Assembly (NCBI GenBank): GCA_011364905.1
Contig: RDNZ01000010.1
Span: 1 to 52,030, forward strand
Direction of reading: 5' to 3'
Source: Candidatus Thorarchaeota archaeon
Lineage (GTDB): Archaea > Asgardarchaeota > Thorarchaeia > Thorarchaeales > Thorarchaeaceae
Length of the DNA: 52,030 nucleotides
This document shows, one piece after another, positions 5,988 to 23,874 of the stretch. Every line of letters starts with the position of its first letter. Position 1 is the stretch's first letter. The notes under the pieces are model-generated. The model did not search any database. It saw nothing but the letters and a program-made list of their open reading frames with translations, and had not been told where the DNA came from. The translations under genes and the position numbers were made by a program.

Positions 5988-7562
5988 TCACCAACTATAT
6001 GGCGGAGACACGTCTCCCGATGATCCACTCTTACGTGTCAATATAATAATGATAACAATGATAATGACACCCATTCCTCCTCCGCCCACAAACACCATCA
6101 TTATCCAATCCCCATTCGGTCCTGTGATGTTTGTAAACCAAGTCACTGATGTTGGAATACTTGTGGTATCCGGTGATGTGGTCGAGGTTGTTGGTTCAGG
6201 CTCGATTATAGGTGCAGAACCATTTCCAAGATACACGTTATCAGTATAGAAATCGCCAGGATCACCATTAGATGAGTGGCACAGCATGAGGACCTTAAAG
6301 AATTCAATCTGTGACATGTCAGTTGGAATGCCAAAGAAAGAAACATAGTCATTGTATACTGATCGATTCAGCATATTCCACTCAAATGGAGTCCAATCAA
6401 ATAGCAGTAATCTCAGATAGCTTGTGTTTGAATTGAGGTCATTTCCAGGGAACGTATATCCAGACCACTCATATGCAATAAAGCTAGTCTGACCCGTTTC
6501 TTTATTGTGGAACCAGAGATCAACCTCCGAATTCCCTGCTTGGCCACAAGTATTTCCAGTTTTTTCAGGATAGATTGCCGCCGATAATGTAAGATTCTCA
6601 CTCAGCGAAGCATTCACAGCAAGCGTCTGTGTGACTTTTTCATATGGTGCTGAGCTGTAATGTGAGTCAAGATACAGCGAATAGCTTCCATCATAGACGA
6701 TTGAGTCTACGATCTGATTGTAAACCGTGCCTCCTTGATTAATCCAAGGTGAGAATGATCCAGATTCAAATCCCGGGTTACTAACGTAGTTGGAACCTGA
6801 AGGGATGGGCTCTGGTTCAGGCTCGATTATAGGTGCAGAACCATTTCCAAGATACACGTTGTCAATAAGAAAGTCACCTGGATCACCATTTGATGAATGG
6901 CACAGTATATGGACCCTATAGAATTCAATCTGTGACATGTCAGTTGGTACGCCAAAGAAGGAAACATAGTCGTGGTATACTGAACGATTCAACACATTCC
7001 ACGTAGACGGAATCCAGTCAAACAATAGGAGTCGTAGGTAGGTCGTGTTTGAATTGAGATCATTACCGGGGAACGTATATCCAGACCACTCGTAAGCGAT
7101 ATGGCTATACTGTCCCGTTTCTTTATTGTGGAAGTAAATGGCAAACTGTGAAACTCCAGCTTGGCCACAGGTGGTTCCAGTCTTTTCAGGATAGATTGCC
7201 GCTGAAACTGTAAGGTTCTCAGTAAGCGTAGCATTCATTGCAAGTTTCTGTGTGACAGGTTCGTACGGAGCTGAGCTGATGTGCGAGACGAGGAATAGCG
7301 AATAATGACCATCATAAACGCCTGAGTCCACAATCTGATTGTAGGTCGTGCCTTCTTCATTGACCCAGGGTGAGAATGATCCAGTTTCAAATCCTGGATT
7401 TTCAATAATGTTTAATGCCTCAGAGTGTACAGAATTCTGACCAAGCGGCGCATCAAATGCACCTAAACTACTAGTTGATGCCATGTTGGTTCCTAACATG
7501 AGCATTAAAGAGCTCACGATAATCACTAAGGCTAAAACCGAAGTAATCTGTTTCTTTTGCAT
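5988..7562 (-). CDS. Membrane-anchored surface protein with two tandem CBM-like (jelly-roll) domains
   Basis: Signal peptide; two ~207-aa repeats starting NPGFE(T/S)GSFSPW; Thr/Ser stalk; C-terminal TM; tail ends PYSW*. ATG 7562 follows GGTGAGG. Confidence 0.8.
   Translation of the reverse strand: MQKKQITSVLALVIIVSSLMLMLGTNMASTSSLGAFDAPLGQNSVHSEALNIIENPGFETGSFSPWVNEEGTTYNQIVDSGVYDGHYSLFLVSHISSAPYEPVTQKLAMNATLTENLTVSAAIYPEKTGTTCGQAGVSQFAIYFHNKETGQYSHIAYEWSGYTFPGNDLNSNTTYLRLLLFDWIPSTWNVLNRSVYHDYVSFFGVPTDMSQIEFYRVHILCHSSNGDPGDFLIDNVYLGNGSAPIIEPEPEPIPSGSNYVSNPGFESGSFSPWINQGGTVYNQIVDSIVYDGSYSLYLDSHYSSAPYEKVTQTLAVNASLSENLTLSAAIYPEKTGNTCGQAGNSEVDLWFHNKETGQTSFIAYEWSGYTFPGNDLNSNTSYLRLLLFDWTPFEWNMLNRSVYNDYVSFFGIPTDMSQIEFFKVLMLCHSSNGDPGDFYTDNVYLGNGSAPIIEPEPTTSTTSPDTTSIPTSVTWFTNITGPNGDWIMMVFVGGGGMGVIIIVIIIILTRKSGSSGDVSPPYSW
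6192..7412. repeat. Intragenic tandem duplication, period 621 bp
   Basis: A 48-nt exact match at 6192-6239 and 6813-6860; similarity is visible across the whole unit (6192-6791 vs 6813-7412). Confidence 0.95.
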
Positions 7563-7573
7563 ACTCTCAATCC

Positions 7574-8524
7574 TCACCAATTGTATTCCGATACTGGAGC
7601 TGCTGCAGAACCTCCCTCTCTCGACAAAAGGATGACAATTACCACAATTATGATCACAGCGCCGCTTCCGGCAGCTATTAGGATGGTCACAAGAGACCCA
7701 GGTTCCTGCGGTGTAGTTGGGGGAGTATTGGTACCCGTCTGTGTGCTCGTTGTCGGATCTGAAGTTGTTGTTGTAGGTTCAGAAAGATAACTGAATGATA
7801 AATCATCAATCCAGAAATCGCCGGGGTCACCATTAGAATTGTGAGACAGTAAAGTGATACGATTCACCACAAGTTCATTATAATTTTCAGGAGCACCATA
7901 GAATGCACAGTAATCATTATACAGATTCCTTTCTACAAAGTTCCAAACATTAGGTATCAGATCAAAGAGAAGATAGAGCACTTGTGTAATATTGACGCCC
8001 TTGTCACCACCTGGATATGTGTAGCCAGACCATTCATAGACGACATTCTTGTGGGTGTCTGATGCAGGATTATACACTCCAACACAGACCTGATCAACCC
8101 CTGCTTGACCAGCAGTGATTCCAACTTTTGATGGGTAGACTGCAAAACTGAAGGTTTGTGCTTCAAAGATGGATATTTCAGTATCGATCTCCTGGTACAC
8201 AGGTTCATATGGTGTGCCACTCACATGGCTGTCCATATAGAGCGCATAGGTTCCCGAGTAAACTCTACTGCTTTGAATCTCATTGTACGTTGTTCCACCC
8301 TGATTTACCCATGGACTGAATCCACCTGATTCAAAACCAGCATTACTGATAATGTTGACCTCCTCAGATAGGACTTCGACCTCTAGCGGCTTGTCGACAG
8401 CTAACGATTCCCGATTGGATGAGGTCATCGATAAGAGTGAAAGAAGAATCACGAAAACAATGAATAATGTACCGAACTTTCCACGCGACATGCACTCAAA
8501 CCCAATTCTTTCTAACGATATCAT
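7574..8524 (-). CDS. Membrane-anchored surface protein, single-domain paralogue of 5988-7562
   Basis: NAGFESGGFSPWVNQGGTTYN...SNGDPGDFWID aligns with the repeats of the downstream gene; Thr stalk, TM, tail EYNW*. True start may be the later ATG (MSRGK). Confidence 0.8.
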   Translation of the reverse strand: MISLERIGFECMSRGKFGTLFIVFVILLSLLSMTSSNRESLAVDKPLEVEVLSEEVNIISNAGFESGGFSPWVNQGGTTYNEIQSSRVYSGTYALYMDSHVSGTPYEPVYQEIDTEISIFEAQTFSFAVYPSKVGITAGQAGVDQVCVGVYNPASDTHKNVVYEWSGYTYPGGDKGVNITQVLYLLFDLIPNVWNFVERNLYNDYCAFYGAPENYNELVVNRITLLSHNSNGDPGDFWIDDLSFSYLSEPTTTTSDPTTSTQTGTNTPPTTPQEPGSLVTILIAAGSGAVIIIVVIVILLSREGGSAAAPVSEYNW

Positions 8525-8715
8525 CGCTAAAAAGCATTCCTTTTATGAACAGATGATTTTCCACTCCACCCATTTTAAGAATTAAGATGAGCAGACAAGA
8601 TGGACTCATGGAGAACAGATAGTCAGTTGAATATGGAGATCGAACCACAAGCAGACATATGTCGTCCAACCTGAAACCGGTGTTTAATCTATCAAGTTGG
8701 TTACAGAAAATGAGT

Positions 8716-8752
8716 TGAGTGAGTTGGCGATAGAAGAACCACCAACTCCTCA
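8716..8752 (-). terminator. Stem-loop downstream of the Zn-ribbon gene
   Basis: TGAG-T-GAGTTGG / CCAACTC-CTCA inverted repeat, followed on the minus strand by a short U-rich run. Confidence 0.45.
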
Positions 8753-8761
8753 GATGAGGAT

Positions 8762-9790
8762 TTAACCCCTCGCTTCTTGTTCACGCTTCAAGCGTTCTTT
8801 CTCAAGATCTCGAATCCGTTTTGTTTTGTCATTCTCAGCCTTCTTGATTCGTTTTTCGACATCACGGATTCTCTTCTCTGCGTTGGAGATCTCTTTCTTT
8901 CTCCGATTCTCCGCATTCTTGTGTTCTTTGTTTGCATCGTTGTGCTCGTTTTTAGCCAGTTTCAGCTCACGTTCTAGACTTTCCGCACGAGTTCGCTTAG
9001 TTTCAGCAACGACAAGATACCGTTCAACTTCTTCATCGAGACGCGAGCGTATCTTATCGAACTCCGTCTTGAGTTGCCCGAGCTCAATATTGTAAGTCTT
9101 AATGTCAGCCTCCAGCAATCGTATTTTCTCATCCTTCGCGGGTTCAGGTGCGGCCATTGAAACCGAGGGCGCTGTGACAGGTGCAGGTGGTGCAACTGGC
9201 ATTTCTTTTGGAAGCGGTGGTTCAGGTTGCGAGAGAAGCGGTTTTTCCTCCTCAACTTCCTCCTCTTCCTCCTCGTACACCTCTTCGACCTCTTCCTCGG
9301 CCACGCCCTCTTCTTCCTCGTATTCCTCCTCCACCTCTTCCTCTTCTTCTACTTCTTCCACTTCTTCTTCTTCAAATTGTTCCTCTGGTGGAGGTTCGAC
9401 TACTGGTTCCGATGGGGCTGAAACGTCTTCGCTTCTGGATCGTGCTTCTGCAGCTTTGACCTTCTCCAATATATCTCGGACAACTTCCTTGCCTCTGTCG
9501 TGTTCCATATCACGGGGCGCAGTGGTTGATTCTTCTCTGTATCCCGTACTGGAGGGAGGCCGTTCCAAAGGTTCTTCACGTTCCATTTTGGCTTGCTCCG
9601 ATGCAACTTCACTTGGAAGTACATGCCGTGCTTCCGAAAAACCAGTTGTTTCTGTAATTGGTTCTTCCTCTGGTTCCTCAACTGATTCCTCAACCGCAGG
9701 TTCTTCCGGTTTTATTAATGATGCACCACAACGAGTGCAATACTTCCGCATCACATCGTTCGCCTTTCCACATTTTGGACATGTCTTAAT
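8762..9790 (-). CDS. Zinc-ribbon / acidic low-complexity / coiled-coil protein
   Basis: In-frame extension gives IKTCPKCGKANDVMRKYCTRCG (a complete CxxC...CxxC ribbon); Glu/Pro-rich middle; long C-terminal charged coiled coil. Start inferred at ATT 9790. Confidence 0.8.
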   Translation of the reverse strand: MKTCPKCGKANDVMRKYCTRCGASLIKPEEPAVEESVEEPEEEPITETTGFSEARHVLPSEVASEQAKMEREEPLERPPSSTGYREESTTAPRDMEHDRGKEVVRDILEKVKAAEARSRSEDVSAPSEPVVEPPPEEQFEEEEVEEVEEEEEVEEEYEEEEGVAEEEVEEVYEEEEEEVEEEKPLLSQPEPPLPKEMPVAPPAPVTAPSVSMAAPEPAKDEKIRLLEADIKTYNIELGQLKTEFDKIRSRLDEEVERYLVVAETKRTRAESLERELKLAKNEHNDANKEHKNAENRRKKEISNAEKRIRDVEKRIKKAENDKTKRIRDLEKERLKREQEARG

Positions 9791-9858
9791 TTTGAACCAC
9801 TCCTGAATTGTAAGATAATATCAGCAAGTACGTATCTTTCTAAGATATACATTTGGCG

Positions 9859-9880
9859 TATAATACTCATGAGTGTTATA
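9859..9880. promoter_or_regulatory. 22-bp palindrome upstream of the Zn-ribbon gene (candidate operator)
   Basis: TATAA-T-ACTCATGAGT-G-TTATA, one mismatched pair; core shared with 13483-13496. Confidence 0.5.
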
Positions 9881-10036
9881 TCGTGATATCCGATAAAAAC
9901 GGACCAATTCTCTTATAGACATTCGATGAATCCTATATGGATTAGGAAGAAAGAACCATTAGAAATGCACGAGAGACAATGGCGAAGTAAGCCATTGCCT
10001 CAAATAGAAACGACTAGACTAGTTTCCACTCTTGTC

Positions 10037-11278
10037 CTAGAGATATGCATCTTCGCCCAGCTGATCTTCGTCAAGGGAACTCTCTTCTACGTCTGTCACT
10101 CTGACGGGAGTCACCTTATTGATTAGCACGAGCATAACATAGGTGAACGCGAAAGCCCATACCATTGCCAACACAACGGCCGCTACCTGCATGCCAAAGA
10201 AGGCAAAACCACCAGCAAGAAGACCTTGAGCGCCTGCTGCATTGACCGATGTAGTTGCGAATACCCCCAGAAGGATCACACCGGTTCCACCGCCTATGCC
10301 ATGCACACCCCAGACATCTAGTGCGTCATCCCATTGTCGCTTGTTCTTGAACGAGATAGCAGCATAGCATATGATTCCTGCCAAGATACCAATAATAAAC
10401 GCTGCACCAGGGGTAACGTACCCTGCAGCAGGGGTGATAGTTGCAAGACCTGCAACTGCACCGGTCAAGAATCCAACAAACTTTGGTTTCTTCTCAAGAA
10501 CCCAAGCAAGTGCGAGCCATGTAGCTCCTGCTACAGAAGCGGCAACGTCCGTGTTGATGAAGGCAAGCCCAGTCACGGCGTTCACTGCTAGCTCGCTTCC
10601 TGCATTGAAACCATACCAGCCAAACCACAGTAGTCCTGTTCCCAGAGCAACTAGTGGAATGCTGTGTGGGCCCCTATCCTTAATTGTTCGTGGTCCAACA
10701 AAGAAGACTGACGCCAAAGCGGCGAAACCTGCTATGCAATGAACAACGATTCCGCCAGCAAAGTCTCGAACCCCAAGCTGATAAAGTAGTCCGTCACCCC
10801 AGATCATGTGAACAAATGGGAAGTATACAAAGAACATCCAAGCTATCAGGAAGATGAGATATGCCTTGAAGTCTACTCTGTTGGCAAAAGCTCCTGTTAT
10901 CAATGCAGGCGTGATTATTGCAAACATCATTTGGTATGCGATAAACACAAATTCAGGGATCTGACCATTCCCCGTAAAGACAGCCGTTGGAGCGACACCG
11001 TTCAAGAACGCTTTGTCCAAATTTCCTATGATTCCGTAGGTATCTCCACTAAAACAAAGTGAGTAACCTGCGATGAACCATATGATAGTCACCACGGACA
11101 GAGAAACAAAGCTCTGAATCATTATTGTTAGAACATTTTTCCGACCCACCAACCCACCATAGAAAAAGGCAAGCCCAGGAGTCATAAGCATTACAAGACT
11201 CGTTGCCAGAAGCATGAATCCAGTATTGCCAGTGTCGAACTGCAAAATCTGCAGTATCGCTTGTTCATACCCTATCAC
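10037..11278 (-). CDS. amtB: Ammonium transporter
   Basis: MTPGLAFFYGG, YQMMFAIITPAL, DFAGGIVVH, LWFGWYGFNAGS, DDALDVWGVHG. Confidence 0.97.
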   Translation of the reverse strand: MIGYEQAILQILQFDTGNTGFMLLATSLVMLMTPGLAFFYGGLVGRKNVLTIMIQSFVSLSVVTIIWFIAGYSLCFSGDTYGIIGNLDKAFLNGVAPTAVFTGNGQIPEFVFIAYQMMFAIITPALITGAFANRVDFKAYLIFLIAWMFFVYFPFVHMIWGDGLLYQLGVRDFAGGIVVHCIAGFAALASVFFVGPRTIKDRGPHSIPLVALGTGLLWFGWYGFNAGSELAVNAVTGLAFINTDVAASVAGATWLALAWVLEKKPKFVGFLTGAVAGLATITPAAGYVTPGAAFIIGILAGIICYAAISFKNKRQWDDALDVWGVHGIGGGTGVILLGVFATTSVNAAGAQGLLAGGFAFFGMQVAAVVLAMVWAFAFTYVMLVLINKVTPVRVTDVEESSLDEDQLGEDAYL

Positions 11279-11494
11279 AATTTACACCAGCAAGAAAGTT
11301 TGAGAAAAACACAGACCTCCCCCCCATTTAGATGTTCATGTATGGCGAGGAAATAGATGCGATTGCGTATCATAAAGAGGCACAAAGAAGGCAAAAGATA
11401 CCTCACCGTCTCAATTTGCCCAAACCCATCTAGTCTGCATATAGAACTAGATTATATAGGTGAGATGACACTCACTTTCTTGGTCGTCGAGAGG

Positions 11495-12751
11495 ATGGTC
11501 CCGCAGGAGACTGAAGCTAAGCTTTCCAGCAGATGGAAAAATAGTCAATTCATCCGTTTCTTTGGTCCAGCGCTTGTTGTGAGTGTTGCCTATGTCGATC
11601 CCGGTAACTTTGGGACTGCAATTGCATCCGGAGCAGTCTACGGATACGAGCTCCTCTGGGCTGTCTGGTTTGCCAGTATAATGGCAATGTTGCTGCAGTA
11701 CCTCTCAGGCAAAATTGGAATTGCAACAGGCCAAAGCATGCCTGAATTGGTGCGTGAGAAACTGAAGTCGAATTCGAAAGTTGTCGCATACTGGCTTTCA
11801 TCGGAACTATTCGCCATAGCCACAGATTTGGCAGAGTTCCTTGGCGTCGCTCTCGCGCTTCACCTACTTTTTGGAATTCACTTACTGTTGGCTGCGGCTA
11901 TCGCATCTTTTGATGTTGTGATCATTTTCCTTCTGGCTGGAAAACGCTTTAGACGTGTTGAGATGCTTATTGGGGTTCTTGTTTCAATCATAGGAGTTGG
12001 TTATGTCTATGAATTATTCATTACACAACCTAACTTGGCGTCTATTGCCTTCCACAGTGTTACGCCGATTCTAACTCGGGACGCTGTGCCCCTAGTCGTT
12101 GGGATAATAGGTGCAACAGTAATGCCTCATGCTTTGGCAGTACATTCGTGGCTAACAAAGAACAAGTTGACCAAAGGTGACCAAGAAGAGAAACATAGAC
12201 TTCTGAGGTATCATAAGATCGATAATGTTCTAAACCTGTCAATTGCTGGATTTGTAAACGCTGCAATCTTGATCATGGCTGCTGCAGCCTTTAGTGGCAG
12301 TTCAGTTGGCACAGTCGAAGAGGCATACTACACACTTGCGCCACTCTTTGGCATGTTCGCAAGTGTAGTATTCGGGATAACCCTCCTCGCATCTGGAATT
12401 TCGTCTTCGATGACAGGTGTGTTGGCTGGCCAGGCATTGATGGAGGGCCTCTTAGGAAGACGTATCCACCCCTGGTTGAGAAGAATAGTTGTGCGTGGAA
12501 TCAATGTTGTGCCAACCATGATTGCTATTTATTTGGGATTCAACGCCTTGGACTTGCTTGTTTATAGTCAGATTATTCTGAGTCTGTTGATACCGGTTCC
12601 GTTGATACCAATCATCTATTTGACAAGTAAAAGGAACATAATGGGACCATTCGTCAACCGACGCGTCACAACTGCTCTTTCTCTTGTGTTTGCAACTTTA
12701 ATCCTGGTTTTCAATGCGTATTTCCTAATACAAACAATCCTTCTACTATGA
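11495..12751 (+). CDS. mntH: Nramp-family divalent metal (Mn2+) transporter
   Basis: AYVDPGNF, GATVMPHAL, TGVLAGQALMEG. ATG 11495 chosen as start. Confidence 0.95.
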   Translation: MVPQETEAKLSSRWKNSQFIRFFGPALVVSVAYVDPGNFGTAIASGAVYGYELLWAVWFASIMAMLLQYLSGKIGIATGQSMPELVREKLKSNSKVVAYWLSSELFAIATDLAEFLGVALALHLLFGIHLLLAAAIASFDVVIIFLLAGKRFRRVEMLIGVLVSIIGVGYVYELFITQPNLASIAFHSVTPILTRDAVPLVVGIIGATVMPHALAVHSWLTKNKLTKGDQEEKHRLLRYHKIDNVLNLSIAGFVNAAILIMAAAAFSGSSVGTVEEAYYTLAPLFGMFASVVFGITLLASGISSSMTGVLAGQALMEGLLGRRIHPWLRRIVVRGINVVPTMIAIYLGFNALDLLVYSQIILSLLIPVPLIPIIYLTSKRNIMGPFVNRRVTTALSLVFATLILVFNAYFLIQTILLL

Positions 12752-12844
12752 TCGAGTGTCAAAGAGAAGAAATAGGCAAAAGAACAACGGATGATGTCTA
12801 CGTTTGGGTAACTCAGAGCTCTGTTAGATCATTTGCCTCCGATA

Positions 12845-13450
12845 TTATTTCCTTAATCGAGGGAAGAAGCGACCAGTTCTCTTCATATACTCAGAGTATT
12901 CTTCGCCAAATGTTTCTAGCAGCATCTGCTCTTCCTTCCTCGCTATGAATGGAAAAGGGATGATAAGAAGCACTGCAAAGCCTATGACCAGCAGGTTAGC
13001 AGTCAATAGCGACACGCCAAAAGAAAACGCGCTGAGTACTGTGTACATTGGATGACGAACACTAGCATACGGTCCGTCTGTGATTAGTAAGTGGCTTTCT
13101 TTGATCTGTAGACAAGGTGAGTATTGACGATCCAGTGTTTTGTGAATCCACCAAAGAAATGGTACGCTTACCAATCCTAGCAGGAAACCAATCCAGTGTG
13201 CAAATGCAGGATAATCTGGGATCTGAGACCATGCAAACCACGGCGGATTAAGAAGGTATAGAATGATTGAGACAAAGTAGCCAAGAACTGCAATGCTGAC
13301 AACCACCTCAGCTTTACCAAATGCCTTTCGTTCTTGGACTGCAGCTGGCTCATCGCGTTTTGGCTTAGCAAATCGATAGTAACCTCTGACAACAAAGAAT
13401 AGCGCGTAAAGAGCGACAAAGAGAACCCTGTAGAAAATCGCATCAGCCAT
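12845..13450 (-). CDS. Isoprenylcysteine carboxyl methyltransferase (ICMT/PEMT)-family membrane protein
   Basis: HLLITDGPYASVRHPMY, EEQMLLETFGEEYSEYMKRTGRFFP. Confidence 0.88.
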   Translation of the reverse strand: MADAIFYRVLFVALYALFFVVRGYYRFAKPKRDEPAAVQERKAFGKAEVVVSIAVLGYFVSIILYLLNPPWFAWSQIPDYPAFAHWIGFLLGLVSVPFLWWIHKTLDRQYSPCLQIKESHLLITDGPYASVRHPMYTVLSAFSFGVSLLTANLLVIGFAVLLIIPFPFIARKEEQMLLETFGEEYSEYMKRTGRFFPRLRK

Positions 13451-13482
13451 GAATTTGCACATCCTATGAGTGATAATAATCC

Positions 13483-13516
13483 ATACTCATGAGTCAAAAT
13501 AAATACTAATAAGTCA
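13483..13516. promoter_or_regulatory. Tandem operator pair between the divergent ICMT-family and TetR genes
   Basis: ATACTCATGAGTCA (13483-13496) and ATACTAATAAGTCA (13503-13516), 12/14 identical, starts 20 bp apart, palindromic core. Confidence 0.6.
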
Positions 13517-13574
13517 TTTTAACCTTGTCAGTTACGCAATGTTCCGCTCAATTGACCAAGGAGAATGAAATGAG

Positions 13575-14171
13575 ATGCCAAAGGTAGTGCCTGAGTACAA
13601 GGAGAAAGCGATGAGAACCATAATCGAAGCTGGTGCATATGCATTCACCGAGAAGGGATACCATCAAACAAAGATGGATGACATTGCAAAAAAGGTGGGT
13701 GTCAGCAAGGGAGCGATTTATCAATATTTCAAGAGCAAGGAGCAGCTCTTTTTCGAGGTCATAGAATTCATTTTGGAATCTCAGAAGGATGAGGTGATGT
13801 CAATCATACTTTCCAATGACCTTATGAGAATCGCTTCAGCGGAATTTTTCGAAACGAAGATTGAACGGGTTAGTCAAACACGCGCCTTTGGACTTGATCT
13901 TTTCATTGAAGCTTCCAGAAATGATGCATTTAGAGAAAGAATAACTGAAATCTATCAGAAAAGCTATGATGAGCTCATAGAGCACGCAAAAGACCTGAAG
14001 AAGAAAGGGATTATCAAGAAAAATGCGGATGTAGGTATTATCTGGAGAGGCATCGTTGCTTTACGTGATGGTCTCCTCAGCTCTGTAAGTTTTGGAGCAG
14101 ACGTATCAGATGCGAAGAAGACTTGGGAGGAAGTGACCACTATACTTCTCAAAGAAATCCTTGTTGAATAG
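13575..14171 (+). CDS. TetR/AcrR-family transcriptional regulator
   Basis: FTEKGYHQTKMDDIAKKVGVSKGAIYQYFKSKEQLF HTH. Confidence 0.95.
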   Translation: MPKVVPEYKEKAMRTIIEAGAYAFTEKGYHQTKMDDIAKKVGVSKGAIYQYFKSKEQLFFEVIEFILESQKDEVMSIILSNDLMRIASAEFFETKIERVSQTRAFGLDLFIEASRNDAFRERITEIYQKSYDELIEHAKDLKKKGIIKKNADVGIIWRGIVALRDGLLSSVSFGADVSDAKKTWEEVTTILLKEILVE

Positions 14172-14396
14172 TAAGGCGGATGAAATGACTACATCATCTG
14201 GGATTAATGAGTTCAGCTTCCGACGACCAAGGTGAAAAGAGGCGGAGATTGCGGAAATATCCGTTCGCAGCGAGATTTGAGGCATAGACCTAATCCGTAC
14301 TTAAGTAGACCTGTAAAGAACCATATCCTTTTCAGAACTGAAACATTGCGCTAGTGGTATTCATCTTCAACGGAAGTCAACTCTGGAGGCGATGAT

Positions 14397-15593: not shown

Positions 15594-15786
15594 TGGTAAC
15601 GTGTCAATCCCCCTGATAATACCATTTCACAACCAAATAAACTCTATTCTCCTGTTGAGTAACTAGTAATAATGGCAGGAAAAATCGGAATTCAGAATCA
15701 ATCAGTATAGCAGCATTGCTGCTCCAGTCTAATACCTACGACAAGAAATATACAGAGATTGCTCGTCTTATTTTTTGGTAATCAGT

Positions 15787-16488
15787 ATGTCCGGTCTTCA
15801 TTCTTTTGGTGAGAATATCTGGATTGTTGAAGGGCCTTTGGTCCGTGATATGCGCGCGTGGTTCACAACACGAATGACTATAGTGAAGCTTAGTAGTGGA
15901 TCGGTGTGGATAGAATCACCGGTACCTGCATCACCCGACACCATGGAAAGCATAGCAGAGATAGGACCTGTCAAATATCTTGTTGCAGCAACAATGCGGC
16001 ACGTTTGGAGATTGGATAACGCCCGTACGCAGTTTCCAGACGCACAATTGTGGGTCTGTCGACGGACCCGTCTTACATTGCAGCATGGTGAACTGCCAAT
16101 TACAGGTATCTTGACAGATACACCTCCACCGGATTGGGCGGATGACTTTGAACAGCTTGAATTCAAGGGCAACCGATTTTCATCAGAAGTTCTATTCTAT
16201 CACAAAAAATCACATACAGTTATCATAGGCGATCTCATCGCATCAAATAAGAAAATCAAAGGAAAGCCGCTATCCAATTTTATTTTCAGACTCGGAGGAG
16301 TGTTATATCCCAAGGGAGGTGTAAGTCGAGACATCAGGATGTCTTTCAGGGACCGCGATTTGGCTCGACAATCACTAGAAACACTCCTCTCGTGGGACTT
16401 TGACAGATTGATTATTGCCCACGGTGACTGCATTGAGACCGGTGCAAAGTCCTATGTAGAGGAGAAATTCCAGTGGCTTAATCATTAG
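15787..16488 (+). CDS. DUF4336-family protein (metallo-beta-lactamase-like fold)
   Basis: TRMTIVKL...SPV, GPVKYLVA, EVLFYHKKSHTVIIGDL, WDFDRLIIAHG. Confidence 0.85.
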   Translation: MSGLHSFGENIWIVEGPLVRDMRAWFTTRMTIVKLSSGSVWIESPVPASPDTMESIAEIGPVKYLVAATMRHVWRLDNARTQFPDAQLWVCRRTRLTLQHGELPITGILTDTPPPDWADDFEQLEFKGNRFSSEVLFYHKKSHTVIIGDLIASNKKIKGKPLSNFIFRLGGVLYPKGGVSRDIRMSFRDRDLARQSLETLLSWDFDRLIIAHGDCIETGAKSYVEEKFQWLNH

Positions 16489-16579
16489 TAGAAACTAGAT
16501 GGAAAACCGCACGTCGGCAGATAGTACAGGCACATTGTTTGAAAGCGCACACATCAGTTGTGTCAATTAAAACAGAAGT

Positions 16580-16603
16580 GTTGGTGGCGGTCTAGCCACC
16601 AAC
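16580..16603 (-). terminator. Stem-loop between convergent genes
   Basis: GTTGGTGGC-GGTCTA-GCCACCAAC perfect 9-bp stem; U-rich run follows on the minus strand. Confidence 0.65.
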
Positions 16604-16621
16604 TGCAAGCGCAATAAAGGA

Positions 16622-18940
16622 CTACCCCTTTCTCATTTTGACAAGACAGCCAAAGAACAGTATTGCAACCACTATGCCGCCAGCTATTAGAAGCATTGTC
16701 CGATCAACGGGCTCATATGTAGATGTGGTGGTAGGTGAAGTTGTTGTCGTTGGGGATGTTGATGTAGTTGTTGATACAGGTGAAACAGTGACTCTGAAGA
16801 TCTGAAACACCTCATTCCCAAATGTGTCCCAGACACTGACATTCAGGTAATAATCCCCAGCGAGCAGAGTCGTCACATTTGTGATCAGACCGGTTGAGTC
16901 GATGGCAAAGTTTACTGTGTCATTAACTGCATAGCCACCAATACCTGATACGTCTGAAGCGCCAATCTGGTAACTGAACACTTCGGCTTCAGTTATTTCC
17001 TGATTTGTTGGTAATACTGTCCACTCGGGACCTGTTGTGTCCACACGTTTGAAGTTGATATCATCAAATATGATGGATATTGACGCCACATTTTCAGCAT
17101 AGGCATAGAGGAGGATATTCGTGATATTCCAATTTGCCTCTCCAAACACTGCAGACATGTCTTCCCAAGGATTACGTACAAGGTTCAACCAGGTTCCAGT
17201 AGTGCTGTAATCGGACGCATAGTATCGAGCAATAGAACTTGTATTCATGGTGGCTGGAAATGCTTCCCCTCCAAGATAGTACTCTAGGTGATAATCATTG
17301 TCAAACAAGAAATCAACTCTTGAGTAGCAATGGTACGAGCCAGAGTTAACAACTGAATTGATGCGATACCAAAACGATGTGTAAATATCGCTGTCGAGCT
17401 GCAGAAAGGTGTCGCGATAGAAACCAGACACTGCGTAACTTGTCACATCAAGCACTCCAGCCCAATCGCCACTGTGTGAAACATCTGTTCGATTCTGCCA
17501 GGGATACGCATTTCCAGTATGGTCCCAACCTGTGCAGACTTGTCCAACATTCCAGTACCAATCTTGCTCGAATCCGGGATCGTGAGATGGATAGTCCATG
17601 AAGCTAAACGCATCCAAGAGGAGTGAAACATAGGACCCTGCACTTTGTCCGCTACTGATATAGAACTCAAAACTATCGATAGCCACATTCACTATGTTCA
17701 ACTCATCAAAGATGTTAGTCAAGTTGATCTTCTGATGTCGCCATGTGCCACGGCTACCGAAGTCATCAGCCAACATGTAGAAAGTATCACTTGTGTTTGT
17801 GAATGTCACATCATCTTGATATCGTCCAAGATACCAGTAGAAGTAATACTGCTGTGTTGTGTTCATTGCATGAAGGTAGAAGTATGCAAGTTGGTCAATG
17901 TCTGCTGATGGTGCATCATCATATTTCCAATCAAAATCTATCACTCCCGTTCTCCCATCAGCCACGAAGTAACCTTCGGGATACCCAATACTCTTTCTTA
18001 CAGTCACATCAGATTCATCAGAATCCAACTGAGCGTAGGAATTCATGTTGACGGAGGTTGATCCTTCAGTAGCATCGCTTGACAATAACGCATAACTCGG
18101 GCTAGAGTGATAGTCTGCAAATCCACTTGCTGGTCCAACCTCAAAATCGCCATTTGTAATGAACTCATACCCTGTGGAATTTTGCATTGATATATCATCG
18201 AAGACGAAATCTGATGGGGTGTCCACTCCAGCAGGAGACCACACTGTAAAGCCAGTACTGAGAACATATAGGTTAGAATCAACCGATCCAAAGAGGGCTT
18301 CATAATCACTAGTTATGTTTCTGTTAAAGTTTACCCATGCATTGGTTGAGCTATTCAGAAGTATGTTCTTCAGATATGTTCCGTTGCCAGGATTGTAACT
18401 ATCTCTATGAGACACCAAGTAGTTTACTGTGCGGGTAAGAATATTATTGTAAATTACTACCTCGAACTTAATTGATGCATCAAACACTGATGATGTCAAG
18501 GGAATTGAATCAATGTAGAAGAAGAAATCCACTATCATGTTCTGTTCTAAATAAGGTCTAGGAACAACCGAGTGATAATCGGCGTATTGTGCACTACCAT
18601 AGAACTGAGAACTTCCCTCAGCAAAAAGACGACCTGCTTTTAGACCTGAATGTGATATATCTTGGTAAGATCCATTTTGCACAACCGTTCCACAACCAAC
18701 TTCAATCCAGTCATCAGGTCCACCATTTGCATCAGTATCTTCAAACCCTCCATTACGTACAACATTAGTAATCAGAGGGTCGTTTCCCCAAATGTCTGAA
18801 ACTGCGGAGTGCGGTTCAAAGACATCTATGTAGCTACTCTCTCTTGTATCTTCATTAGATTGAGAGCTTGTTGTTGGGATTGCTACTGGTAGTAGCAAAA
18901 TGACGACAAAGAATGCGAAGAACAGGCATTTGGACTTCAT
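16622..18940 (-). CDS. Large membrane-anchored surface protein: three CBM-like domains plus an Ig/cadherin-like domain
   Basis: Signal peptide; NGGFED / NGDFE / DPGFEQ repeats, each with a W..F/L.RN-like element; DTTGPEW...FAIDSTGLIT cadherin-like segment; Thr stalk, TM, KMRKG. Confidence 0.8.
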   Translation of the reverse strand: MKSKCLFFAFFVVILLLPVAIPTTSSQSNEDTRESSYIDVFEPHSAVSDIWGNDPLITNVVRNGGFEDTDANGGPDDWIEVGCGTVVQNGSYQDISHSGLKAGRLFAEGSSQFYGSAQYADYHSVVPRPYLEQNMIVDFFFYIDSIPLTSSVFDASIKFEVVIYNNILTRTVNYLVSHRDSYNPGNGTYLKNILLNSSTNAWVNFNRNITSDYEALFGSVDSNLYVLSTGFTVWSPAGVDTPSDFVFDDISMQNSTGYEFITNGDFEVGPASGFADYHSSPSYALLSSDATEGSTSVNMNSYAQLDSDESDVTVRKSIGYPEGYFVADGRTGVIDFDWKYDDAPSADIDQLAYFYLHAMNTTQQYYFYWYLGRYQDDVTFTNTSDTFYMLADDFGSRGTWRHQKINLTNIFDELNIVNVAIDSFEFYISSGQSAGSYVSLLLDAFSFMDYPSHDPGFEQDWYWNVGQVCTGWDHTGNAYPWQNRTDVSHSGDWAGVLDVTSYAVSGFYRDTFLQLDSDIYTSFWYRINSVVNSGSYHCYSRVDFLFDNDYHLEYYLGGEAFPATMNTSSIARYYASDYSTTGTWLNLVRNPWEDMSAVFGEANWNITNILLYAYAENVASISIIFDDINFKRVDTTGPEWTVLPTNQEITEAEVFSYQIGASDVSGIGGYAVNDTVNFAIDSTGLITNVTTLLAGDYYLNVSVWDTFGNEVFQIFRVTVSPVSTTTSTSPTTTTSPTTTSTYEPVDRTMLLIAGGIVVAILFFGCLVKMRKG

Positions 18941-19055
18941 TTGAATCAGCTTCCATATATACGGGAGTTAGATTCTAAAATCCTCCAAAATAGATTGAAA
19001 AAGCTTGTTTGGATACCTATGCGGAAATTGGATGAATTAGATGCTCAGTTTATCG

Positions 19056-19670
19056 TCATAGATTCCTACTGGTTTCCAGAAATGACATGATGAAAGAACA
19101 CCATTTATCCTGCAGTTTGAGATATGCTGGATCTCGTGCAACCATAACGTCTCTCATTAGTCGCGATGCATCTTCTTGTTGGTGAGTCGACAAGCTGTTC
19201 CAGAACTCTGAATTAGTAATTGTGAGTTCAGAGCTGATTTGATTATCCCGTTCGATTAATTCTTGAAGCAAGGTCAGTGCTTCGTCCATTCTTGTCTCAG
19301 GAACACTGACTCCATAAGCTTCAAGACCCGATATCATGTTGCGGAGTCTATCCTTGGCAAAGGTCCGCATCGCACTGTCTGTCTTGATCATGTCTGCAAT
19401 TCCAAGACGGTATTCTCTCGCTGTTGCCCGGTAGAAACGCTGGACTATTCCAGTTGTTGTCTTTTCAGTCCGAACCTGCTGGACCAGACCAACACTCTTT
19501 AGCCGTTCTATGTGGCGCAATACATTTCCCGGATTCTTCCCTATGGCATCTGCTAGCTGCTTCACTGTCATCTCTTCATTGACAAGGTATTTGAAAACAA
19601 TGAGGGCGCGAATCTTGTCAAAGAGAACTTTGATAGTGTTTGGATCTGAAATTATCTCTAGATCTTTCAT
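19056..19670 (-). CDS. ArsR-like winged-helix transcriptional regulator
   Basis: IKVLFDKIR...MTVKQLADAIGKNPGNVLRHIERLKSVGLV...RFYRATA. Start is ATG 19670 or 19697. Confidence 0.88.
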   Translation of the reverse strand: MKDLEIISDPNTIKVLFDKIRALIVFKYLVNEEMTVKQLADAIGKNPGNVLRHIERLKSVGLVQQVRTEKTTTGIVQRFYRATAREYRLGIADMIKTDSAMRTFAKDRLRNMISGLEAYGVSVPETRMDEALTLLQELIERDNQISSELTITNSEFWNSLSTHQQEDASRLMRDVMVARDPAYLKLQDKWCSFIMSFLETSRNL

Positions 19671-19698
19671 CTTATGAGGCACTTCCGAAGAATTCATT

Positions 19699-20607
19699 CT
19701 ACTGTGATCCCTCCGCTTGGACTTCCTGTTCTTCTCTGATATTCGGGTCTGAAATGATAAGATAGGTTCTCGATACTGCGAGCACATAAACTGGTAGTAG
19801 TAAAAGAACAATCACAAGACCAGCTGCAAGAATGTAGAGAGTATATACTTGATCTGGCATGAGTATGACATCCGTGAACTCTTGGATAATAAAGGGTCCA
19901 AGCACTAGCAAACCCAATGACGAGAATGTGCCCCAAATCGAAAATACAGCGCCTGAGTTTTTCCTAGTCAGTGTTATTGAGTGCTTGATGGAGGAAAAAA
20001 CCGGAATGCCATCAACTATTGATGGAAAGACCATGGATAGCATTCCCGAACTGAAAAGAAACCATAGAGCAGCTATGAAGATTAGAAACGTAAGTGTGGT
20101 GATATCAGGTATCTGGTTTCTGAACCACCATGCTCCGAAAATATACTCAATCCCGATGGGCACAATTATAATCAGGAACTGAACTATTCCTCCTGAAGCC
20201 AAGCGAGAGAATTTCTGCCGATACCAAAGCAATGCCTCCTCGGCAGTGATAGTTCCGCTCTCAAAAGCCTCTTGTCCAATCCCAAACAGTGCACCTATAG
20301 CAATTAAGAACGGTGCTAGTAGGGCGGAGCCTGCAAACAGAATTATACCGACAGCCTCAACATCGTTAACCCCTGACAGGGCGTCGCCTATAAAGTCGAA
20401 AACATCGAAGACTTCATCAAAAGGCCCATAGAAAATCGAAATCGGTATACTTCCTATGAACACTATGAATAGGAACAAGACTATGGTAATAACAAAGACA
20501 CCAAGTATTGCTAAGAAGATAGAGAGATAGTATGTTCTTGTGAATTGAACACTAAGCTTGATCGTTTCAACATAGCTTCGCAGGTTCCATTTGCCCATTA
20601 CATTCAC
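19699..20607 (-). CDS. Hypothetical polytopic membrane protein
   Basis: About 6 TM segments; PSIVDG..VFSSIKHS motif; co-oriented and overlapping within an operon. Confidence 0.75.
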   Translation of the reverse strand: MNVMGKWNLRSYVETIKLSVQFTRTYYLSIFLAILGVFVITIVLFLFIVFIGSIPISIFYGPFDEVFDVFDFIGDALSGVNDVEAVGIILFAGSALLAPFLIAIGALFGIGQEAFESGTITAEEALLWYRQKFSRLASGGIVQFLIIIVPIGIEYIFGAWWFRNQIPDITTLTFLIFIAALWFLFSSGMLSMVFPSIVDGIPVFSSIKHSITLTRKNSGAVFSIWGTFSSLGLLVLGPFIIQEFTDVILMPDQVYTLYILAAGLVIVLLLLPVYVLAVSRTYLIISDPNIREEQEVQAEGSQ

Positions 20608-22409
20608 ACCCGTTGTTTCTTTCTAACAACTATGAAGATGCTACTAAGTGCTACGATTGCCAATATTGAGAATGGAACGATAATCAAATCAGGCATCGGC
20701 GGACCTTCGGTATTTCCCTCTGTAATTGTAATGTCCAGAAGCTCGGACGGTATTTCGGAAAGCGCCAACACATCCTCAAAATCAGTCGGTGTTTCATTTG
20801 ACATTAGAGTCGTTATCACATATACTTCTGCAGCCCCATTGCTTTGGATATACTCAGAGATTGTTCCACGTTCTGAACGGTACTGATTTTGCGACACATG
20901 CCACCCAGTGGAATTTCTCAAGGCTACAACTACTCCAATAGTGTATGGATACGGATTTTCAATTGCAATTGTAAAGTTGTCAGGTGGTGCGATCAATCTA
21001 AACACATTGAAACCATAATGATAATGCCGGACATTTTCCTGGTGGATTGGGTAGATATTCAGTAGATTGGTGTAACTCTGAACTGTATAGTTCAATGACT
21101 CGAATCCATAGACACCATTTTCAGTCTCGGTGTCATCCAAGACACAGGCGGTTATGAAATCAAGATAGACATCATTGAATGTGAGATCATATCCTGCGTT
21201 GGCAAGTGCGACCTCGACGGCTGCTGGACCATCCTCCCGTATGCCTACAAGGTCCCTCACCATACTCACCCCAAACCGTTCAGCAAGATAGGTCACAAAG
21301 AGATACGCCTGACCGTAACTTGCATCCCAAAGACGACCGTAGAACCTGTTGAAATGGAGAAGAGAGATCTCTGGATGATATGTGTAAGTGGTCGTAACCG
21401 CATCTGTAATGTAGTACCAGTATCCTGTGTAATCTATTGCAAGATTTGCTAACCCCTCCATCAGAAAGTCCGCTTCATCTATCTCATAGTTGTCCCAAAT
21501 CAAGTGATTGAACTCATGGATAGTAATGAGCACAGTTTCGTTCAGGTCCCTTTCAGATTCGATGAAAATCATTTCTCTTCTATTAGAATATGGAAAAGGA
21601 CATTCATCCCACGGAACATGAAATCCCAAATACGCAGTTCCCATATACCGGACCAATGGTACGAGGAATAGTGTCACCCTGGGATCCCCATCCAAATCTC
21701 CGAGATAGCCATCCGGACTTCCAGCAAGCTCGACTGCTTTAGGGTAGACCACATCATCGAAGGTCTGCCCCAACTGACTGCACTTCGATATTGCCGCACC
21801 TTCTCCTAGAAGATCAATCGTTTCGTTTGCCATGTAGACATAGCAGTAATCACCAACAGCGAGAAGAGTAGCATTCACTGGAGTCAACTCCATGGACTCT
21901 GGTCGCGACAGGTATGTCCAGAAAGCACGTTGGTCACCAAAAGACTCGGGAGTATTTTCGTGGTTAATCAAAACACCAGGAGTGAATACAGGTGCGAAAT
22001 ACACTGTTCTCACCTTGTTTTCATCATAAAGGAAATGAAAGGTGAACTGATACTGTGTCCCAGCTACGAAATCACCATAGACATCCATTGACAAGATTCC
22101 ATGAAAGGGAGTGGTATACGCTGATTCATTCGTTGTGGTATCAAGTGGATTGAGTCCTGTGACAGATGGTTCACATTTCAGTGTTTGAAGCGTGAGCTCC
22201 TCATCAAAAGGATCAAAGAGTCCAACAACCCTAATACTATTGGGGCCCATTCCATCGTCCCCGATAGTCAAACACTGGATATCAAAAGTATTAGGGGCTG
22301 CAGGTGCAAAATAAACAGCCACCCCAATACTGCTGATTGTTATAATCAATACAAGAGCGATAGCAATTTTCGTTCTTGATCCTAGAGTTCCCCAACTAAT
22401 TCGCGACAT
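20604..22409 (-). CDS. Membrane-anchored zinc metallopeptidase (M30/M6-like)
   Basis: HEFNH...EGLA, GDLDGDPRV, SNRREMIFI, YGQAYLFVTYL; N-terminal signal/TM and C-terminal TM + RKK. Confidence 0.82.
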   Translation of the reverse strand: MSRISWGTLGSRTKIAIALVLIITISSIGVAVYFAPAAPNTFDIQCLTIGDDGMGPNSIRVVGLFDPFDEELTLQTLKCEPSVTGLNPLDTTTNESAYTTPFHGILSMDVYGDFVAGTQYQFTFHFLYDENKVRTVYFAPVFTPGVLINHENTPESFGDQRAFWTYLSRPESMELTPVNATLLAVGDYCYVYMANETIDLLGEGAAISKCSQLGQTFDDVVYPKAVELAGSPDGYLGDLDGDPRVTLFLVPLVRYMGTAYLGFHVPWDECPFPYSNRREMIFIESERDLNETVLITIHEFNHLIWDNYEIDEADFLMEGLANLAIDYTGYWYYITDAVTTTYTYHPEISLLHFNRFYGRLWDASYGQAYLFVTYLAERFGVSMVRDLVGIREDGPAAVEVALANAGYDLTFNDVYLDFITACVLDDTETENGVYGFESLNYTVQSYTNLLNIYPIHQENVRHYHYGFNVFRLIAPPDNFTIAIENPYPYTIGVVVALRNSTGWHVSQNQYRSERGTISEYIQSNGAAEVYVITTLMSNETPTDFEDVLALSEIPSELLDITITEGNTEGPPMPDLIIVPFSILAIVALSSIFIVVRKKQRV

Positions 22410-22436
22410 GCGTCGATGAATGTTTGCGTTTGTTAA

Positions 22437-22463
22437 AAACGTTTGCGGTAAAAGCAAACGTTT
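22437..22463. promoter_or_regulatory. Inverted repeat upstream of the peptidase-membrane protein-ArsR operon
   Basis: AAACGTTTGC-GGTAAAA-GCAAACGTTT; each arm contains the palindrome AAACGTTT. Confidence 0.55.
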
Positions 22464-22597
22464 GTGGTTGTTGATGTGTTTTTATCTAGCAGACAGTGGA
22501 AAGCAGAATGAATTCCTGGTCTTAATCTATTCATGCTAAGTTACTCAAGTTTAAGTGATGAGTATGATTCCATCTTTGCCTTCGAGGTGGAAATATC

Positions 22598-23485
22598 TTG
22601 AGCAGGGAAAATAGTGAACCAACTTCAGAGGCAAGCATAGTACCGAATAATAAATCCATTAAGAACGGATTCTTATTCATACTCTTCACAGGCGCAAGTT
22701 TTCTCACATTCAATATTGGAGGATACAACAATTTCGTTCCCTCTGAATTGAGGCTAATCGTGAGGATAATCGTAGCTGGTATTCTGTTTCTATCTACCGT
22801 CGCGCTTTACAAGACAGAGGGGAGTTGGAACAAATACTGGAACGTATCATATGCTTTGTTAATATCATCCATAGGACTAGTTCTTGCATGGTTCTTCGGA
22901 AGGTGGTACACACTAATCCCGGGACTTTCACTAAACACTGTCGAAGGTGTCGCAATCGCAAAGGTGGCAGAAGTCATCCCTATAGTTGTCACAATTCTCA
23001 TTGGCACATGGTTAGTTGAGAGAGATTTCACCCCAATCTTCCTACGTGGAGGAGATCTCGAGAAGACATTCAAAATAGGTCTAATCGTTTCGCCTGTTGC
23101 ATTGATACCATTTTTTGCACTTGGCGGATTAGGTCTCTCTGTTGGTCTAGATGTTATTTCCAGATGGCTACCTTGGATGTGTGTGTTTGGTTTTAGCAAT
23201 GCATTCATGGAAGAACTGATGATTAGGGGTATATTTCTGAAAAAGTATAATGCGATGTTTGGAAAAAACAGTTCACTGCTTCTGACTTCGGTGATTTTTG
23301 CACTGTTCCATCAGGCAGTCATTGATTATACGGATCCTGCATCATTTACGATCTTTTTACTAGTCACGTTTCTATTGGGCATATCATGGGGATATGTTAT
23401 GCAGAAATCTGACAGTATCTGGGGTGCAGTTCTGGCCCACGCAATCGCAGACATTCTTTTAATCATTGCAGTATTTGGAACATAA
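22598..23485 (+). CDS. CPBP/CAAX (Abi) family intramembrane metalloprotease
   Basis: EELMIRG, FALFH, SIWGAVLAHAIAD. Confidence 0.92.
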   Translation: MSRENSEPTSEASIVPNNKSIKNGFLFILFTGASFLTFNIGGYNNFVPSELRLIVRIIVAGILFLSTVALYKTEGSWNKYWNVSYALLISSIGLVLAWFFGRWYTLIPGLSLNTVEGVAIAKVAEVIPIVVTILIGTWLVERDFTPIFLRGGDLEKTFKIGLIVSPVALIPFFALGGLGLSVGLDVISRWLPWMCVFGFSNAFMEELMIRGIFLKKYNAMFGKNSSLLLTSVIFALFHQAVIDYTDPASFTIFLLVTFLLGISWGYVMQKSDSIWGAVLAHAIADILLIIAVFGT

Positions 23486-23494
23486 TTTCTAGAA

Positions 23495-23566
23495 AGAGAA
23501 GAAGAGAGAACTGGAATTCTCAAGCTCATCAGTATTAGAACTATTTCATGGTCTTGACCCATTCGA
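23495..23566 (-). repeat. Duplicate copy of the 3' end and terminator region of gene 25017-25682
   Basis: TTCATGGTCTTGACCCATTCGA identical at 23545-23566 and 25021-25042; both read EWVKTMK-stop. Flanks share GCTCATC and AGAAGAAGAG. Confidence 0.85.
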
Positions 23567-23571
23567 GATGT

Positions 23572-23874
23572 CTACCAACTACACCCTGCGTCAGGAGTTC
23601 CGTTTCCAGCTGGACACCTCTTGAGAAAGATTATGATAATCACAAAGATTGCAATTCCCCCACCTCCAATTCCAAGAATAACGAGAACGGTCATGTCTAC
23701 TGGTGGCGGAGTTGGACTTGTCGCCTCTGCGCCCCATGAACCATGCGAGGGTTCTGATTCTATCCATTTTCGTGCGAATACCCAATCATTTTCCCTCAAA
23801 GGTGCATCTTGTCTTCCTCCCGTCATTTGGATGTTCGTGTCTAAAGCATACTGCTTTTGATTTGGTCTTAGGCA
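23572..23874 (-). pseudogene. 3' remnant of a surface protein gene (DUF2341-like end + TM anchor)
   Basis: DWVFARKWIESEPSHGSWGAE resembles DUF2341 C-termini; Pro/Thr linker, TM, tail ending GCSW*. No signal peptide, and an in-frame stop lies just upstream. Confidence 0.6.

Follow-up and report, generated by a model that had tools for sequence, protein, structure and literature searches.

We analysed a 52,030-nucleotide stretch of Candidatus Thorarchaeota DNA (contig RDNZ01000010.1; the window, whose coordinates we use unless another contig or locus is named), in which a sequence-only reading had picked out surface proteins that run from a glycine-rich transmembrane helix (TM) through basic residues and a small spacer to a terminal Y-x-W. 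Three such tails are indeed found, ending at 5988, 7574 and 23572, and all YxW tails of the window are encoded on the minus strand. Two belong to intact tandem genes and the third to a broken open reading frame (ORF):

7574 to 8524, minus strand: type I surface protein of 316 aa (sequence, Pfam and structure model).
7574 to 7621, minus strand: its predicted cytoplasmic tail, REGGSAAAPVSEYNW plus stop, 15 aa, ending YNW (sequence).
5988 to 7580, minus strand: tandem paralogue of 530 aa with two CBM_4_9-like domains (sequence and Pfam).
5988 to 6035, minus strand: its predicted cytoplasmic tail, RKSGSSGDVSPPYSW plus stop (sequence).
23572 to 23826, minus strand: 5'-truncated remnant of a DUF2341-type YxW protein, an 84-aa ORF (sequence comparison).

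From its N- to its C-terminus the 316-aa protein consists of a hydrophobic signal-like helix, a jelly-roll domain, a Thr/Pro stalk, a Gly-containing TM (about 7622-7693) and the tail; its C-terminal end is LSREGGSAAAPVSEYNW plus stop, with Y-N-W-stop at 7574-7585. The order of these parts, from hydrophobic N-terminal helix through ectodomain and Thr-rich stalk to TM and basic cluster, predicts that the tail faces the cytoplasm. The ectodomain is a single CBM_4_9/NTTRR-F1-like jelly-roll beta-sandwich, for which the Pfam match is under cut-off (PF02018, E 2e-4) and the structure model is of low confidence (predicted local distance difference test, pLDDT, 55.7) with weak matches to GH12/beta-sandwich and jelly-roll structures. 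The 530-aa paralogue, which is 43-47% identical to it and passes the same Pfam model (28.9 bits, cut-off 25.9), starts in overlap with the stop of the upstream 7574-8524 gene and ends in LTRKSGSSGDVSPPYSW plus stop, with Y-S-W-stop at 5988-5999 and a TM at about 6036-6107. Judging by these folds, the YxW ectodomains may bind sugars.

The sequence-only reading proposed that these proteins form a second anchor class, in which the cytoplasmic tail is of near-fixed length and ends in an aromatic motif, and that the motif should be enriched among anchored proteins of the whole proteome. Both proposals are supported. A six-frame translation of the home genome (G000; 3.08 Mb, 81% complete) gave 2,013 ORFs of at least 200 aa, 97 of which have a single C-terminal TM; a [YF]xW end occurs in 4 of these 97 anchored ORFs and in none of the 1,916 others (Fisher P = 5e-6). 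The four ORFs are two paralogue pairs, and counting them as two independent events gives, by hand arithmetic, a P value of about 0.002. The members outside the window, at C8:11907-13334 and C21:27518-28804, are both DUF2341 proteins. In all four, exactly 15 residues separate the first Lys or Arg from the end, a distance of at most 6 in 59 of the 97 anchors. The short basic tails reported for other anchored proteins (KMRKG, RKKQRV, FRKS, RRQE) are as described, and two of these proteins serve as comparisons here:

16622 to 18940, minus strand: comparison anchor with the short basic tail KMRKG and no aromatic terminus (sequence).
20604 to 22457, minus strand: comparison anchor with the short basic tail RKKQRV (sequence).

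Taken with the wider set of tails below, these data support the conclusion that the enriched YxW terminus marks a distinct anchor class with a near-fixed-length tail and a selected aromatic end.

Pooling gave 48 distinct tails with a common plan: TM, K/R, a G/S/P spacer and Y-[DNEQSKT]-W-COOH. The tails were chosen on Y and W, the other columns being unselected, and are related by descent. The distance from the first K/R to the end is 15-19 residues in all 48. The middle residue of the motif is D in 16 tails, N in 12, E in 8, Q in 5, S in 4, K in 2 and T in 1, and position -4 is mostly G (18), P (11), S (7) or E (6). The spacer columns vary, with an entropy of 2.2-3.1 bits, and the tails are 19-78% identical to the first row of the alignment. 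Among the 19 genes for which DNA was available, Tyr is encoded by TAT (11) or TAC (8), the stop codon is TGA (10), TAA (5) or TAG (4), and the DNA 3' of the genes differs between members; selection therefore acts on the peptide and on where translation stops. These same data bear on a nucleotide-level signal, in which TGG-TGA would be kept because it contains GGTGA, which in archaea serves as a ribosome-binding sequence and would couple translation to the next gene. The start of the next gene does overlap TGGTGA in the window tandem and in genome G045, but the explanation is contradicted for most members by the TAA or TAG stop of 9 of the 19 genes, by the convergent genes that follow several of them and by the unconserved downstream DNA; it leaves Tyr and tail length unexplained, and we regard it as exceedingly improbable. 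A Cys ahead of the basic residues, where the TM meets the cytoplasm (I-C-R), occurs in 22 of the 48 tails and in several short-tailed anchors, and is a possible site of lipid modification.

Two homologue searches were run without the tail as a filter. Among the ten CBM-like homologues of the 7574 protein, all nine full-length proteins (one of them the query's own entry) end YxW, the tenth being an anchorless fragment. Y and W are the sole invariant columns in the last 18 of this set, and positions -4 to -14 hold 3-6 different residues each. Of 120 listed DUF2341 homologues, seven end YxW, all of them anchored, and two end F-x-Y-G (25 anchors passed the threshold of the script, which missed P0003). 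Several close DUF2341 homologues end directly after the basic residues; P0002, 69% identical to the C21 protein, terminates at CRSKKP. Such tail-less close homologues imply that YxW is dispensable for anchoring, and the tail has been both gained and lost. We also built a 44-position profile of the tail itself from 14 tails; among 1.84 billion representatives it had 43 matches, 32 of which end YxW, including 24 outside the training set; among the others, four carry YxW plus 1-8 residues, one ends YYYG, three are cut short and three look unrelated. An ESM Atlas search with the tail gave nothing above 0.79, and no RNA data set was listed as containing the locus.

The third tail of the window shows the motif in decay. 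The remnant ends in LKRCPAGNGTPDAGCSW plus stop, with the Cys codon TGT at 23581-23583 in the place of Tyr. That this codon is a decayed Tyr codon, as the sequence-only reading had suspected, is supported by the homologue P0155, which is 51% identical over 84 aa and ends GYSW. The same reading had called the remnant unrelated to the other two proteins; this is right for the window pair and wrong for the DUF2341-type members, of which the remnant is a fragment (match to the C21 protein at E = 1e-7). The remnant lies in a variable islet:

23537 to 25018, no strand assigned: variable islet that contains the YxW remnant together with a short-tailed surface gene, 23907-24932 (joint in a contig of run X1).
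23545 to 23566, minus strand: first copy of a 22-nt direct repeat, which duplicates the 3' end of an OB-fold gene at 25017-25682.
25021 to 25042, minus strand: second copy of this 22-nt repeat, lying within the 3' end of that gene.

The two copies bound the islet; allowing up to 3 mismatches, an 18-mer of the repeat has 3 matches where 0.11 are expected. In run X1, which may be the source sample, one contig (depth 5.4) joins 23536 to 25019, skipping 1,482 nucleotides, and one contig spans 23447-24358 without any difference. Together, the flank-joining contig and the repeat make the islet look like an insertion/deletion polymorphism that carries surface-protein genes.

The tail is reused on different ectodomains, which are mosaics of the CBM_4_9/NTTRR-F1-like sandwich, DUF2341, PKD-like repeats and an unnamed module. 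This module, of about 200 aa, starts with W-x-H-D-C-S, has no Pfam match and occurs in up to four repeats in P0134, P0138, P0141, P0145, P0148 and P0151. Whether YxW ends are confined to one paralogue family has a divided answer. The cargoes are diverse, with 425 of the 703 pairs among 38 long members lacking detectable similarity and 278 being directly similar; yet all 38 are linked in one connected component, a shuffled superfamily bridged by chimaeras such as P0139, P0145 and P0162. The arrangement suggests that the tail is probably one inherited portable module and not a product of convergence. It could then be a mere passenger of recent descent, a gene end copied among paralogues by recombination in which Y and W are conserved only through youth. 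The connectedness of the superfamily and the patchy distribution within a single genus fit such copying, as does P0121, a natural recombinant between the tandem paralogue types, whose N-terminal half is of the 7574 type and whose C-terminal half is of the 5988 type. Youth does not sit well, though, with the spacer entropies and tail identities given above, with synonymous Tyr codons and all three stops, with Y and W as the sole invariant columns of the tail-blind family, or with the fact that the copy with a decayed Tyr is the broken remnant. This explanation is largely refuted already, and we give it very little credence.

YxW tails are present in 19 genes from 9 of the 28 genomes of one genus (the home genome and 8 of 27 others), and the named homologues of the proteins are mostly Ca. 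Thorarchaeota. No YxW tail was found in other genera among the 87 genomes of the class, a soft absence that covers the best 150 rows of each profile search; profile A2 included the PKD-like domain (94 positions), and its searches mostly rank PKD+TM proteins. Patchiness of this kind is as expected of accessory surface genes in variable islets. What the other genera do carry are sister endings. The homologous TM (I-[ST]-I-G-S ... I-C-R) is present in genera g9, g11, g13 and g16, where the tails end YYYG, WSYG, YVYG, PTYG, FEYG, FSYG, YYSG, PYSSG or WTFS, and one aromatic-x-Y-G-type tail belongs to an SBP_bac_5 (ATP-binding cassette substrate-binding) protein, a cargo outside the mosaic superfamily. 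A separate type I family ends G[TS][YF]QV in G000, G045, G038 and G019, an ending kept in 3 of 5 genomes searched, one of them from g9.

Searches of the phylum were made in two ways. In a profile run that scored 14 candidates per genome, none outside genus g1 reached the last position among 150 of 307 rows. A DNA pattern restricted to TAA and TGA stops was applied to 400 genomes, recovered 5 of the 9 known YxW genomes and, beyond the class, listed 94 rows from 72 genomes; 30 of these loci hold no Y-x-W ORF longer than 34 aa, and the other rows look noise-like, with the frame checked by eye. Nothing convincing was found outside the class by these insensitive searches, which are no proof of absence. 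A loose class-wide DNA pattern for YxW was swamped by chance matches, and so was a YG pattern, from which four in-frame candidates were picked by eye, the one in G008 going unconfirmed afterwards.

A flexible spacer of bounded length followed by two fixed aromatics around a polar or acidic residue has the anatomy of a C-terminal docking motif. The tail might instead act on the membrane: the spacer would loop back and set Tyr and Trp in the inner headgroup region, stabilising or orienting the TM or giving it a preference for a lipid domain, with no protein reader. Trp and Tyr favour membrane interfaces, the spacer is flexible and rich in G/S/P, sister genera carry other aromatic endings, and no co-distributed partner gene was found. 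Other observations speak against it. Neither the 43 profile matches, from a profile biased by being built on YxW, nor the two tail-blind sets contain a W-x-Y, F-x-W or Y-x-F end; the middle residue is D or E in 24 of 48 tails, which disfavours an anionic surface; and close homologues anchor without the tail. We consider this interface anchor rather unlikely.

Known archaeal and bacterial C-terminal sorting signals (PGF-CTERM, GlyGly-CTERM, Loki-CTERM NF033507, Heimdall-CTERM NF045529, GG_III-CTERM NF041738 and PVV-CTERM NF051874) resemble the YxW tails in having a C-terminal TM and a basic cluster on varied ectodomains, and the sequence-only reading had recommended comparing them. None of 10 YxW or YG-type C-termini reached the cut-off of a CTERM model (GG_III, 10-12 bits against a cut-off of 22; PVV, 12.9 against 27). 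With 14 short tails the best E values were 2e-5 (PVV) and 0.004 (GG_III), bit scores being for the first member only, and the 20604-22457 anchor scored weakly, under cut-off, with the Loki- and Heimdall-CTERM models. The weak GG_III and PVV scores arise because the TM is Gly-rich: the GG_III alignments stop at the end of the TM, whereas the conserved letters of YxW lie 13-17 residues past the first basic residue, on what would be the cytoplasmic side. The tripartite CTERM end does not describe a signature that trails the basic cluster by a spacer, and we rejected YxW as a CTERM signal. Of sortase-like enzymes, neither exosortase/archaeosortase (PF09721) nor rhomboid (PF01694) gave a match in the 81%-complete genome.

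By analogy, YxW would work most like the C-terminal peptide signals of eukaryotes or bacteria. ERGIC-53 has a lectin ectodomain, and that of the 7574 protein is a jelly-roll-like beta-sandwich. The tails of p24 and ERGIC-53, of 10-15 residues, carry the COPII Phi-C motif for export from the endoplasmic reticulum (PMC5464768). As in YxW proteins, a type I protein there bears a short tail (15-19 residues here) with hydrophobic or aromatic residues at its end, but Phi-C is two adjacent hydrophobics or a terminal Val, whereas YxW is Y-polar-W, and no homology is implied. The strict Phi-C pattern does not fit YxW, the penultimate residue being polar in all 48 tails; it is a separate family that ends [YF]QV. 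In bacteria, the C-terminal YxF of outer-membrane proteins is read by BAM and by the PDZ domain of DegS (PMC3582582). Both motifs place Tyr at -3 and finish in an aromatic residue, but YxF forms the end of a beta-barrel strand and works in the periplasm, whereas YxW follows a TM helix and a disordered spacer. Y-x-W-COOH also fits the PDZ-ligand pattern of hydrophobic-x-hydrophobic at a free C-terminus, with 4 of the 43 profile matches extended past W, and is comparable to class II PDZ ligands.

We propose that TM and tail would be a single inherited, shuffled module, the last residues of which, [GPSE]-Y-[polar]-W-COOH, would form a short linear motif facing the cytoplasm. The basic residues would set the topology by the positive-inside rule, and the G/S/P spacer of about 12 residues would fix how far the motif lies from the membrane. 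A peptide-binding protein in the cytoplasm would dock on the Tyr and Trp side chains, probably on the free carboxylate too, and would thereby place, cluster, recycle or couple lectin-like surface proteins. That YxW is a cytoplasmic docking motif read by a protein is, in our judgement, an even call; a sorting role is plausible, tempered by the narrow and patchy distribution.

As for the reader, the TPR or PDZ-like adaptor pictured by the sequence-only reading found no backing. The sole match in G000 to PDZ_2 (PF13180), the PDZ model that was searched, lies within a multi-TM, membrane-embedded protease, which we take to be site-2-protease-like from its HEFAH motif. YxW genes have TPR genes nearby in G036 and G038, and in the window a TPR gene is found some 4 kb away from the remnant; these three loci look syntenic, and we read the TPR neighbours as synteny. 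A small acidic protein that adjoins YxW genes in G036, G043 and G045 (L087:2065-2469, L091:8362-8709 and L094:1404-1739) was not found in G000, and we do not treat it as the partner. The protease raises the thought that the tail is a released signal: after shedding of the ectodomain, an intramembrane protease would cut the Gly-rich TM and free a cytoplasmic peptide of about 25 aa ending YxW. Such a scheme draws on the helix-breaking GGGG or IGS in the TM and on the PDZ-bearing protease gene, but Gly-rich TMs are common in short-tailed anchors of the genome too, no regulator gene is linked to YxW loci, and the 81%-complete genome has no match to rhomboid. We think it very unlikely.

For a docking motif, the best candidate reader class would be the two-lobed Vps26/arrestin-fold family, whose own C-termini are acidic-aromatic and in the genus often L/F-x-W. 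The home genome has three arrestin-fold genes, including two full Vps26/arrestin-fold proteins:

L236:1021-1917 and L236:1944-2819 (G000 contig C47), strand not given: tandem Vps26/arrestin-fold proteins (domain search).

Eukaryotic Vps26 reads aromatic tail motifs. The model of the W-ending protein has a pLDDT of 93.5 and matches ARRD-6 and Vps26 with template-modelling scores of 0.72-0.74. Across Thorarchaeia, homologues mostly end in an acidic stretch with aromatics (DLDW, EFEW, DLGW, DFSW, DLGF-x, FDF, FSF), similar to motifs of the adaptor-ear or clathrin-binding kind; nine orthologues of the W-ending paralogue besides that of G000 end L/F-x-W, and two end W-E. In G016 a cargo ends SFDFSYG and an arrestin SFGFSFE. 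Arrestin and cargo tails might both bind one pocket, or both might bind a common third partner. The adaptor fold is shared with retromer, but retromer motifs are internal whereas YxW is terminal, and the family is near-universal in the class whereas YxW is patchy. For a complex prediction, residues 1-268 of the W-ending arrestin, under a 67-row alignment, were paired with 30 aa of TM and tail, under a 19-row alignment; it scored 0.00 with controls that did not fold, and counts neither for nor against binding. A broader proposal would be that the tail signals of Thorarchaeia (YxW, aromatic-x-YG, YQV, YDY) make up a C-terminal, cytoplasmic code in the style of eukaryotes, read by a membrane coat or adaptor, most plausibly the Vps26/arrestin-fold proteins or a shared partner, with the signal varying by lineage along with the adaptor's own tail. 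This analogy is speculative and, we believe, rather improbable.

The length limit admits another kind of protein partner. AAA+ proteases depend on unstructured tails and have a preference for aromatic degrons, and a flexible aromatic tail of minimum length might be a handle by which a Lon-type, PAN/proteasome or Cdc48 machine extracts variable surface proteins from the membrane for fast turnover. The lower bound is hard (at least 15 residues in 48 of 48 tails), YxW genes sit in variable islets, the genome encodes one 814-aa protein with a Lon_C domain, and the sister x-Y-G end resembles the HbYX proteasome/PUB-docking motif, a penultimate Tyr behind a hydrophobic residue, which YYG and VYG fit and SYG, TYG and EYG do not. 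YxW itself, with Tyr at -3 and not in the penultimate place, does not follow HbYX, and its upper bound of 19 residues and strict order of Y then W are tighter than is usual for degrons. On balance we find a degron unlikely.

Returning to a docking motif with a sorting role, several results weigh against it. Since the long members form one connected superfamily, the 48 tails are not 48 independent observations. The motif is extended in P0132, P0139, P0154 and P0166 and cut off in P0146, P0150 and P0165, so that the free W-carboxylate is not kept in every member, and the end of one X1 contig gives Y-K-L-stop at the 5988 position (hand translation of a single contig). The nine YxW genomes are spread patchily over three subclades of a quick elongation factor 2 tree (50 of the 87 genomes, without the g1 members G029, G037 and G044), and no YxW member was detected in the near-complete sisters G052, G030, G047, G042, G050 and G054. 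Searches of the 81%-complete home genome identified no cytoplasmic reader and no Sec23/24-like domain (PF04811 or PF04810, the control of one search being silent). The arrestin family, found in 71 of 87 class genomes and in all 27 other members of the genus, does not track YxW; in the YxW genomes G043 and G046 nothing closely matched the W-ending paralogue (best E about 1e-24); and the arrestin's own tail has a pLDDT of about 55, with no self-docking seen in the model.

We conclude that YxW is a real, selected and apparently undescribed C-terminal motif, predicted to be cytoplasmic, on shuffled Thorarchaeal surface proteins, with lineage-specific sister forms. No description of it was found in the literature covered, to which subscription papers and supplements (e.g., the eukaryotic signature protein tables of PMC10307638) did not belong. 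Adaptor, coatomer and retromer subunits have reported homologues in Asgard archaea (PMC10307638), and we found no cargo or cargo signal for these homologues in the literature. If a eukaryote-style tail code were true, the trafficking-like machinery of Asgard archaea would have its first cargo signals in these tails. The YxW tail is a concrete 15-residue bait, which makes tail-signal sorting in Asgard archaea testable with peptides and recombinant proteins and without culture, and short-tailed homologues, the decayed C-x-W remnant and the lineage variants are natural negative controls. As a degron or lipid anchor it would still be an undescribed archaeal anchor class, of narrower interest given its patchy presence in one genus.

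Some further tails and neighbouring genes deserve mention. The G[TS][YF]QV end is found in two genera on a conserved 562-aa type I protein (L244:4534-6222, G000 contig C41), and the adjoining membrane protein (L244:6200-6793) ends VRPKEDF in G000, G038 and G045 and VRPKE in G019. Another type I protein (L243:4703-5713, G000 contig C25) has a Tyr-rich 23-aa tail ending GYYDY, which is kept in G029 and different in the G034 homologue. Beside the YxW tandem of the window lies a second broken gene:

5656 to 5976, minus strand: broken remnant of a short-tailed surface gene (51% identity over 61 aa).

An intact counterpart of this remnant follows the same YxW tandem in G045. Directly upstream of the tandem, the 8762-9754 gene encodes a protein with a zinc-ribbon start, a long acidic Pro/Glu region and a coiled-coil end, and no Pfam match. 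Farther along the window, 30300-32393 encodes a C-anchored arylsulfotransferase-like protein with an SCP2-like domain.

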